Positions 11,261 to 12,233 of a stretch of 43,851 bases of DNA are shown here, in pieces. A model generated the notes under the pieces. That model had not been told where the DNA came from, searched no databases, and was given only the letters and a program-made list of their open reading frames with translations. The number at the start of each line of letters is the position of its first letter. Positions within the stretch are counted from its first letter, which is position 1. The DNA is taken from the IMG/VR virus record IMGVR_UViG_2531839640_000007; one strand, given 5' to 3'. Source of the DNA: a virus. Lineage: Duplodnaviria > Heunggongvirae > Uroviricota > Caudoviricetes. The position numbers and the translations under genes were made by a program.

Positions 11261-11482
11261 ATGAATCCTTATATTTATCTTGGTGGTGCAATACTTGCAG
11301 AGGTCATTGGTACAACCTTAATGAAGTTTTCAGAAGGTTTTACACGGTTATGGCCATCTGTTGGTACAATTATTTGTTATTGTGCATCATTCTGGTTATT
11401 AGCTCAGACGCTGGCTTATATTCCTACAGGGATTGCTTATGCTATCTGGTATATGCGTACCTTCATATCGTGCAAGAGGTAA
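11261..11482 (+). pseudogene. emrE: Truncated emrE (SMR efflux pump) - first 63 codons intact, then unrelated sequence
   Basis: MNPYIYLGGAILAEVIGTTLMKFSEGFTRLWPSVGTIICYCASFWLLAQTLAYIPTGIAYAIW matches EmrE to W63; diverges after 11449. Confidence 0.8.
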
Positions 11483-12233
11483 AGGAATAAGTGAAATCGC
11501 TGGCTATTATCCCAGAGTCATATCAGATGATTTGTTTTACGCTGTGCAGGAAATTCGGTTGGCACCTTTTGGTATTAGCAATAGTAGCAAAAATCCTATG
11601 TTGATAAATCTACTTCGAACAGTTATGAAGTGCGAGGCTTGTGGTAATACCATGATTGTTCATGCGGTATCTGGAAGTTTGCATGGCTATTATGTTTGTC
11701 CGATGAGAAGACTGCATCGATGTGACAGGCCATCAATAAAGAGAGATTTGGTTGATTATAATATCATTAATGAGTTGCTTTTTAATTGTAGTAAAATCCA
11801 ACCAGTTGAAAACAAGAAAGATGCTAATGAAACTTTAGAGTTGAAAATTATTGAGCTCCAGATGAAAATTAATAATTTAATTGCTGCATTATCTGTTGCG
11901 CCTGAAGTTACCGCTATAGCAGAAAAAATCAGAGTATTAGATAAGGAATTACGAAGGGCTTCTGTATCATTAAAAACTTTGAAGAGTAAAGCGGTGAGTT
12001 CACTTGGTGATTTTCATGCTATTGACTTAACCAGTAAAAATGGGCGAGAGCTATGTCGTACACTTGCCTATAAAACATTCGAAAAAATCATAATCAATAC
12101 AGATAATAAAACCTGTGATATCTATTTTATGAATGGCATTGTTTTTAAACACTATCCTTTAATGAAAACAATATCCGCCCAGCAGGCGATAAGTACTCTC
12201 AAATATATGGTTGATGGTGAGGTTTATTTTTGA
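11451..12233 (+). pseudogene. 3-prime remnant of a large serine recombinase gene (zinc-ribbon and coiled-coil domains only; catalytic domain absent), ybcK-like
   Basis: CEACGNTM...YYVCPMRRLHRCD zinc ribbon followed by coiled coil; AT-rich; abuts truncated emrE in a different frame. Confidence 0.6.

Follow-up and report, generated by a model that had tools for sequence, protein, structure and literature searches.

Truncated emrE and ybcK genes in the prophage at ybhC

The window, by which we mean the whole stretch of 43,851 nucleotides that was analysed (IMG/VR record IMGVR_UViG_2531839640_000007), starts in ybhC and continues into a tyrosine integrase gene, and its coordinates are those published for prophage H of Shiga-toxin-producing E. 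coli O104:H4, whose att site is ybhC (3581902-3624519; Ahmed et al. 2012, Table 6, PMC3486847). Prophage H has been described as the only prophage common to strain 55989 and the Stx2a-positive strains (PMC3486847). The first 25 kb of the window matched 15 complete O104:H4-type genomes in one piece at a listed identity of 100.0%, including 2011C-3493, C227-11, HUSEC2011, 2009EL-2050 and 2009EL-2071, with two 1-bp homopolymer differences between the window and RefSeq 2011C-3493; 55989 and NCCP15648 matched in two pieces lying about 1.14 kb apart.

Upstream in this prophage, a replication O-like gene (9177-10196) and P (10193-10894) are followed by an intact ren (10891..11193, plus strand; present in the ORF list and annotated in RefSeq as 'protein ren'), which lies directly upstream of the emrE remnant and marks the lambdoid O-P-ren early operon. 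The lambdoid early-right operon that contains the remnants of emrE and ybcK continues downstream of them with a P22AR-C fragment, a 169-aa ORF, ybcN, ninE, ybcO, rusA, ylcG and quuD. From ren to quuD the region is about 96% identical to DLP12 and in the same order. The locus is therefore a lambda-like prophage at ybhC with a DLP12-like ren-nin region: an earlier reading of this DNA, made from the sequence alone, had described the emrE-ybcK arrangement by reference to DLP12, which holds for the gene order and not for the locus itself. DLP12 at argU, considered both as this locus and as the home of the second emrE described below, was rejected because the argU site is empty in O104:H4, where envY, tRNA-Arg and fimZ are adjacent.

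The emrE remnant (11261..11449, plus strand) comprises codons 1-63, from Met1 to Trp63, as defined by ORF translation, Pfam and comparison with 55989, to whose emrE it is 100% identical. Codon 63 is TGG at 11447-11449, and the frame then runs out of register through a tail of 10 codons (YMRTFISCKR) and a TAA stop at 11480-11482 (tail with stop, 11450..11482, plus strand); these codons are ybcK sequence read in the wrong frame. Pfam family PF00893 was matched over residues 3-63 and profile positions 2-62 of 93, with 82.9 bits against a cutoff of 23.7, compared with 121.5 bits over positions 2-93 for the intact EmrE homologue. Both the translation and the end of the PF00893 match at residue 63 agree with the sequence-only reading, in which the emrE frame was intact through Trp63 and unrelated thereafter.

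In EmrE, Glu14 in TM1 is an essential, membrane-embedded residue, and the functional protomer has four helices and about 110 aa, with TM4 needed for dimerisation. The stub is 73 aa long and retains Glu14 (E at position 14 of MNPYIYLGGAILAEVIG), with 10 unrelated residues in place of residues 64-110, and it lacks the second half of TM3 and all of TM4. Judged by this domain content, the emrE remnant would be a pseudogene and not a functional SMR member; PGAP labels it 'SMR family transporter, incomplete, missing C-terminus'.

The ybcK remnant (11448..12233, plus strand) consists of codons 248-508 and the stop codon, as supported by Pfam, PGAP and an exact match to YbcK of E. coli 55989, its translation being identical to residues 248-508 of that 508-aa protein. 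Intact 55989 YbcK has three Pfam domains, namely Resolvase (4-161), Recombinase (191-284) and a zinc ribbon (302-357). The resolvase catalytic domain PF00239, home of the serine nucleophile, falls wholly inside the deleted block, and a Pfam profile search did not find it in the remnant of the window; a large serine recombinase without its catalytic N-terminal domain was also what had been read from the sequence, and the identity to YbcK 248-508 and the zinc ribbon match confirm that the downstream ORF, in another frame, is recombinase-related. The recombinase domain has lost 57 of roughly 94 residues (about 60%), leaving its last 37 (248-284 of 191-284, at 11448-11558, plus strand, by comparison with 55989), and Pfam did not detect PF07508 Recombinase in the remnant.

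The zinc ribbon PF13408 is located by Pfam at about 11610-11777 (plus strand; 34.3 bits against a cutoff of 25.3, profile positions 1-57 of 58), and it keeps all four cysteines, in the motifs CEAC and C-x7-C. The C-terminal region at about 11814-12008 (plus strand) is, with low confidence, a putative coiled-coil: a single-sequence AlphaFold model of the remnant has two long helices, at remnant residues 123-148 and 154-187, where a coiled-coil would be expected, at a mean pLDDT of 36, which makes the model unreliable. A PDB sequence search with intact YbcK as query gave no match at E<=0.001. The remnant has neither a start of its own nor the catalytic serine, and on domain content it too would be a pseudogene; its PGAP label is 'zinc ribbon domain-containing protein, missing N-terminus'. 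Through the RefSeq PGAP annotation, both remnants are already known as pseudogenes. In the literature on O104:H4 with emrE and on ybcK we found no paper on this deletion, and the titles and abstracts of the ybcK literature yielded no paper on a recombinase role.

Other genes of the prophage are damaged as well. A P22AR C-terminal-domain pseudogene with an internal stop (12345..12669, plus strand; Pfam PF10548 and RefSeq) lies outside the deletion and is another sign that this region is decaying. Two overlapping ORFs, at 21171-22436 (421 aa) and 22403-23095 (230 aa), take the place of one for the terminase large subunit, which RefSeq calls 'frameshifted', and prophage H probably cannot package DNA. 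The emrE-ybcK deletion fits this pattern of prophage decay, to which rusA, marked as frameshifted in RefSeq, also belongs.

Several smaller differences were observed along the window, which is byte-identical to none of the listed complete genomes. The rusA ORF (14512-14874) has one extra G at about 14596-14600 relative to RefSeq 2011C-3493 and 55989, and it is therefore an intact 120-aa ORF here and 'frameshifted' in those two records; the extra G may reflect either a sequencing error at a homopolymer, in one of the assemblies, or a real phase-type difference. From about 7547 to about 14600, the feature coordinates of RefSeq 2011C-3493 are one higher (+1) than those of the window, which places a second 1-bp indel within 6950-7546. 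That interval has no annotated gene, a lambda N-like gene would be expected there, and its minus strand, translated in one reading frame, was full of stops. The A-run at 8290, in the divergent control region between an S24-peptidase repressor gene and a cro-like gene, is shorter by one A in 55989 than in O104:H4. An intact gene for a 360-aa OmpC/NmpC-like porin (15669-16751, minus strand) is located between quuD and the lysis genes and is the counterpart of nmpC in K-12 DLP12, where the K-12 copy is disrupted by IS5.

The deletion junction and its origin

A base-by-base walk between the window and the prophage of E. coli 55989 (locus L001, with the intact module) showed a single colinear gap of 1,142 bp. 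The left flank of the window equals 55989 through 11450 (L001 3560) and the right flank equals it from 11448 on (L001 4700), such that the junction at 11448-11450 is a 3-bp microhomology, GGT, which occurs at both endpoints of the intact sequence (L001 3558-3560 and 4700-4702). Over the roughly 8 kb compared, one SNP and two homopolymer indels were the differences between the flanks and 55989. Missing from the window are emrE codons 64-110, a 255-bp spacer in which a ylcJ-like small ORF sits, and ybcK codons 1-247, and the two remnants are in different frames, ybcK being +1 relative to emrE. Alignment to the K-12 emrE-ybcK module placed both remnants on it, with a gap of 1,141 bp. The internal deletion relative to the emrE-ybcK arrangement that had been suspected from the sequence is thus borne out by the comparison with 55989; its size had been put at about 0.9 kb, and this estimate was too small against either reference. 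In a published comparison of finished genomes, prophages F and H are said to have 'small deletions', without further detail (Ahmed et al. 2012, PMC3486847).

We consider it very likely that the defective lambda-like prophage at ybhC lost 1,142 bp of its ren-nin cargo region in one spontaneous illegitimate deletion, of which the junction is the scar. In the ancestral prophage, as in those of 55989 and NCCP15648 today, the module of emrE, 255-bp spacer and ybcK would have been intact, and replication slippage or another form of RecA-independent end joining across GGT, a mechanism that we infer, would have fused codon 63 of emrE to codon 248 of ybcK. The emrE frame would then have ended after its 10 foreign codons, with both remnants left as pseudogenes. 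What was found has the form of a microhomology-associated illegitimate deletion, namely a colinear loss with short homology (in the range of 1-10 bp) and without long repeats, IS elements or recombinase sites. A microhomology of 3 bp is weakly diagnostic, and by a rough estimate about 5% of random junctions would show at least 3 bp.

One of the two genes cut encodes a serine recombinase, and the deletion could in principle have been site-specific, through the action of YbcK on pseudo-att sites, or the result of IS-mediated excision. Crossover by serine recombinases takes place at a core of 2 bp, which could be concealed within GGT. The endpoints themselves, however, argue against this origin: their dyad symmetry is at background (9/20 against a mean of 8.9, sd 1.2, 95th percentile 11), a repeat search found no direct repeats in register with the deletion, and neither an IS element or remnant nor a target duplication is present there. 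The check for short direct repeats proposed in the earlier reading accordingly turned up only the 3-bp GGT. In addition, the junction belongs to a single lineage and is not recurrent. We regard site-specific or IS-mediated loss as highly improbable, and retain illegitimate deletion across the microhomology as the preferred origin.

Distribution of the junction and a second emrE locus

When a 120-bp probe spanning the junction was compared with 5,426 complete E. coli genomes, exactly 15 matched it over its full length, and most of these 15 bear the label O104:H4. About 3,600 more matched no more than one half of the probe at a time. At the protein level, the exact 73-aa junction product was found on 59 public contigs and the 264-aa product (described below) on 98, from NCBI, ENA and Logan assemblies, with the same gene context in all 24 of the contigs read. 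An assembly or sequencing artefact, with both genes intact in the organism, had been named as a possibility from the start, and the assembly of the window is indeed not error-free, since it differs from RefSeq O104:H4 by homopolymer-length indels elsewhere. Against this, the identical junction recurs in the 15 separately deposited complete genomes and its products recur on contigs from all three sources, and the missing 1.14-kb segment is unique and non-repetitive and has no flanking repeats, and is thus not a typical target for collapse. The artefact explanation is almost certainly wrong.

The intact module is present in 55989, NCCP15648, K-12 DLP12 and about 500 other genomes, and 12 sequenced lambdoid phages carry it with an identity of 96-97%. 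NCCP15648 is a Korean human isolate of 2001 that has been used in O104:H4 comparison (PMC9423916). Because the intact module is widespread and both genes are cut in mid-domain, we take the intact module to be ancestral and the O104:H4 state, with the deletion, to be derived. The deletion arose once, in the O104:H4 (ST678) lineage after its split from 55989 and NCCP15648, and before the ancestor that the Georgian strains of 2009 share with the outbreak strains of 2011, a timing that rests on the available complete genomes.

Public assemblies contain many other shortened products of emrE and ybcK. A 71-aa EmrE occurs on 170 contigs, listed for Shigella sonnei and E. coli, and a 275-aa C-terminal fragment of YbcK occurs on 171 contigs whose source names list E. 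coli, with a separate 275-aa member on 3 contigs from O157:H7. These products suggest repeated independent decay of the emrE-ybcK module, and some of the 'partial' entries may be contig-end artefacts.

An emrE probe matched two places in every O104:H4 genome. A genome-wide search located the second as a 92%-identity allele beside fliE, and in O104:H4 2011C-3493 this second emrE is full-length (110 aa, WP_001070440.1, NC_018658.1 2088402-2088734), lies between fliE and ybcL-ybcM, and has 91.6% nucleotide identity to the prophage copy with one residue different. Prophages C, F, D and E of O104:H4 were considered as its home and rejected, since according to annotations and the coordinates in PMC3486847 none carries emrE. 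A second ybcK was not detected in O104:H4, where the junction probe matched two places and the second match is explained by the second emrE.

The emrE-ybcL-ybcM island, which lacks ybcK, was located at L010 18403-20262 (NC_018658.1 2088402-2090261) and at L009 7001-8860, and in O104:H4 its neighbours are fliE on one side and yedK/yedF on the other. Roughly 2,300 other complete genomes apparently have this fliE-linked island as their only emrE locus. In O104:H4 as in most E. coli it is not part of a prophage, and in O104:H4 it is intact. K-12 DLP12 has emrE, ybcL and ybcM with ybcK inserted after emrE, in contrast to the fliE island, and the block in DLP12 has the look of a mosaic in which the chromosomal emrE island is combined with a phage recombinase gene.

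The fliE-linked emrE is predicted to be a copy that can supply EmrE function. Of the two inactivations suggested earlier, of a drug-efflux pump and of a recombinase, that of the pump therefore applies to the prophage copy of emrE and not to the strain as a whole, which is not EmrE-null. Because an intact emrE paralogue is present beside fliE, and because YbcK is not known to have a function, the phenotypic cost of the deletion is probably nil. For the same reason of an intact paralogue, it would be wrong for automated resistance-gene and pan-genome tables to list O104:H4 as lacking emrE or as having a truncated one. The O104:H4 lineage has managed without the catalytic half of YbcK. The junction could be used as a PCR or k-mer marker for carrier genomes, most of which are labelled O104:H4, and it tells the carriers apart from 55989 and the Korean NCCP15648 of 2001. 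As biology, it is one more case of cargo-gene decay in a cryptic prophage, which is not surprising and carries little weight.

Possible products of the junction and comparison with known systems

After the deletion, what is left of ybcK would lie immediately downstream of the emrE promoter, and within the emrE remnant an AGGGA motif (11428-11432, plus strand) is followed 6 nt on by an ATG (11439-11441) in the ybcK frame. This ATG could serve as the start of a 264-aa product consisting of MLS and YbcK 248-508. Gene callers pick ATG 11439, and the 264-aa product is called in GCA_000258615.1; on the 98 public contigs its deposited name is 'putative phage recombinase'. Such a Shine-Dalgarno-like motif in front of an in-frame start, together with the predicted ORF, favours the view that the junction yields something functional, either a 264-aa DNA-binding fragment of YbcK or a new regulatory state through removal of a terminator.

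With regard to the terminator, a Rho/NusG-dependent terminator, tybcK, has been proposed in the untranslated region upstream of ybcK in K-12 (Shashni et al. 2014, PMC4150792), where ybcK mRNA is increased in NusG mutants and some Rho mutants (PMC4150792). The deleted spacer is 94.5% identical to that K-12 region, the tybcK homologue of 55989 lies wholly within the deleted block, and a weak hairpin with a T-run is also found inside this block at L001 3735-3760. A consensus scan of the intact module for terminators and promoters nevertheless showed no excess over shuffled sequence (terminator-like hits, 4 against 2.4 +/- 1.5). Moreover, the prophage looks defective, given its frameshifted terminase, and altered late-gene control would then be of little consequence, and the allele is confined to one clone and thus shows no sign of selection. 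We therefore judge it very unlikely that the junction gives rise to a functional product or a terminator-free regulatory state.

A related view, that this is a small nin-like deletion in which loss of the tybcK homologue would raise read-through and permit a catalytically dead 264-aa fragment of YbcK, is in our estimation also very unlikely. Under it, read-through from pR and the emrE promoter could extend into ybcN-ninE-ybcO-rusA-quuD of prophage H. The reading that we prefer remains a spontaneous illegitimate deletion that left two pseudogenes.

The closest relatives of the affected region are found in K-12 DLP12 and in lambdoid phages. In DLP12 (emrE-ylcJ-ybcK, b0543-b0544) the same order of ren, emrE, a spacer of about 255 bp and ybcK is followed, as in the window, by ybcN-ninE-ybcO-rusA-ylcG-quuD and a porin gene, and over emrE-ybcK 55989 and K-12 share 96% nucleotide identity. 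The module of the window differs from that of DLP12 in lying at ybhC rather than argU, in lacking ybcL-ybcM after ybcK, and in its 1,142-bp deletion. Escherichia phages Perceval, 4A7, Lambda_4C10, 1W and 3W carry the whole 2.3-kb module at 96-97% identity. In the lambdoid phages both genes are complete and are annotated as EmrE and a large serine recombinase, whereas the window retains emrE 1-63 and YbcK 248-508. An intact gene for YbcK, at L001 3959-5485 in 55989, occurs also in the ren-nin region of viable lambdoid phages that already have a tyrosine integrase.

In lambda, nin5-type deletions take out the terminators that lie from P/ren to Q, and late expression becomes independent of N. The deletion in the window has the same position as nin5-type deletions, in the ren-to-Q interval of the lambdoid early-right operon, and the DNA that it takes includes a homologue of a proposed Rho-dependent terminator. 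It differs from nin5 in the apparently defective state of its prophage, in its extent, 1.1 kb against 2.8 kb, and in what it removes, which is cargo and not the nin genes.
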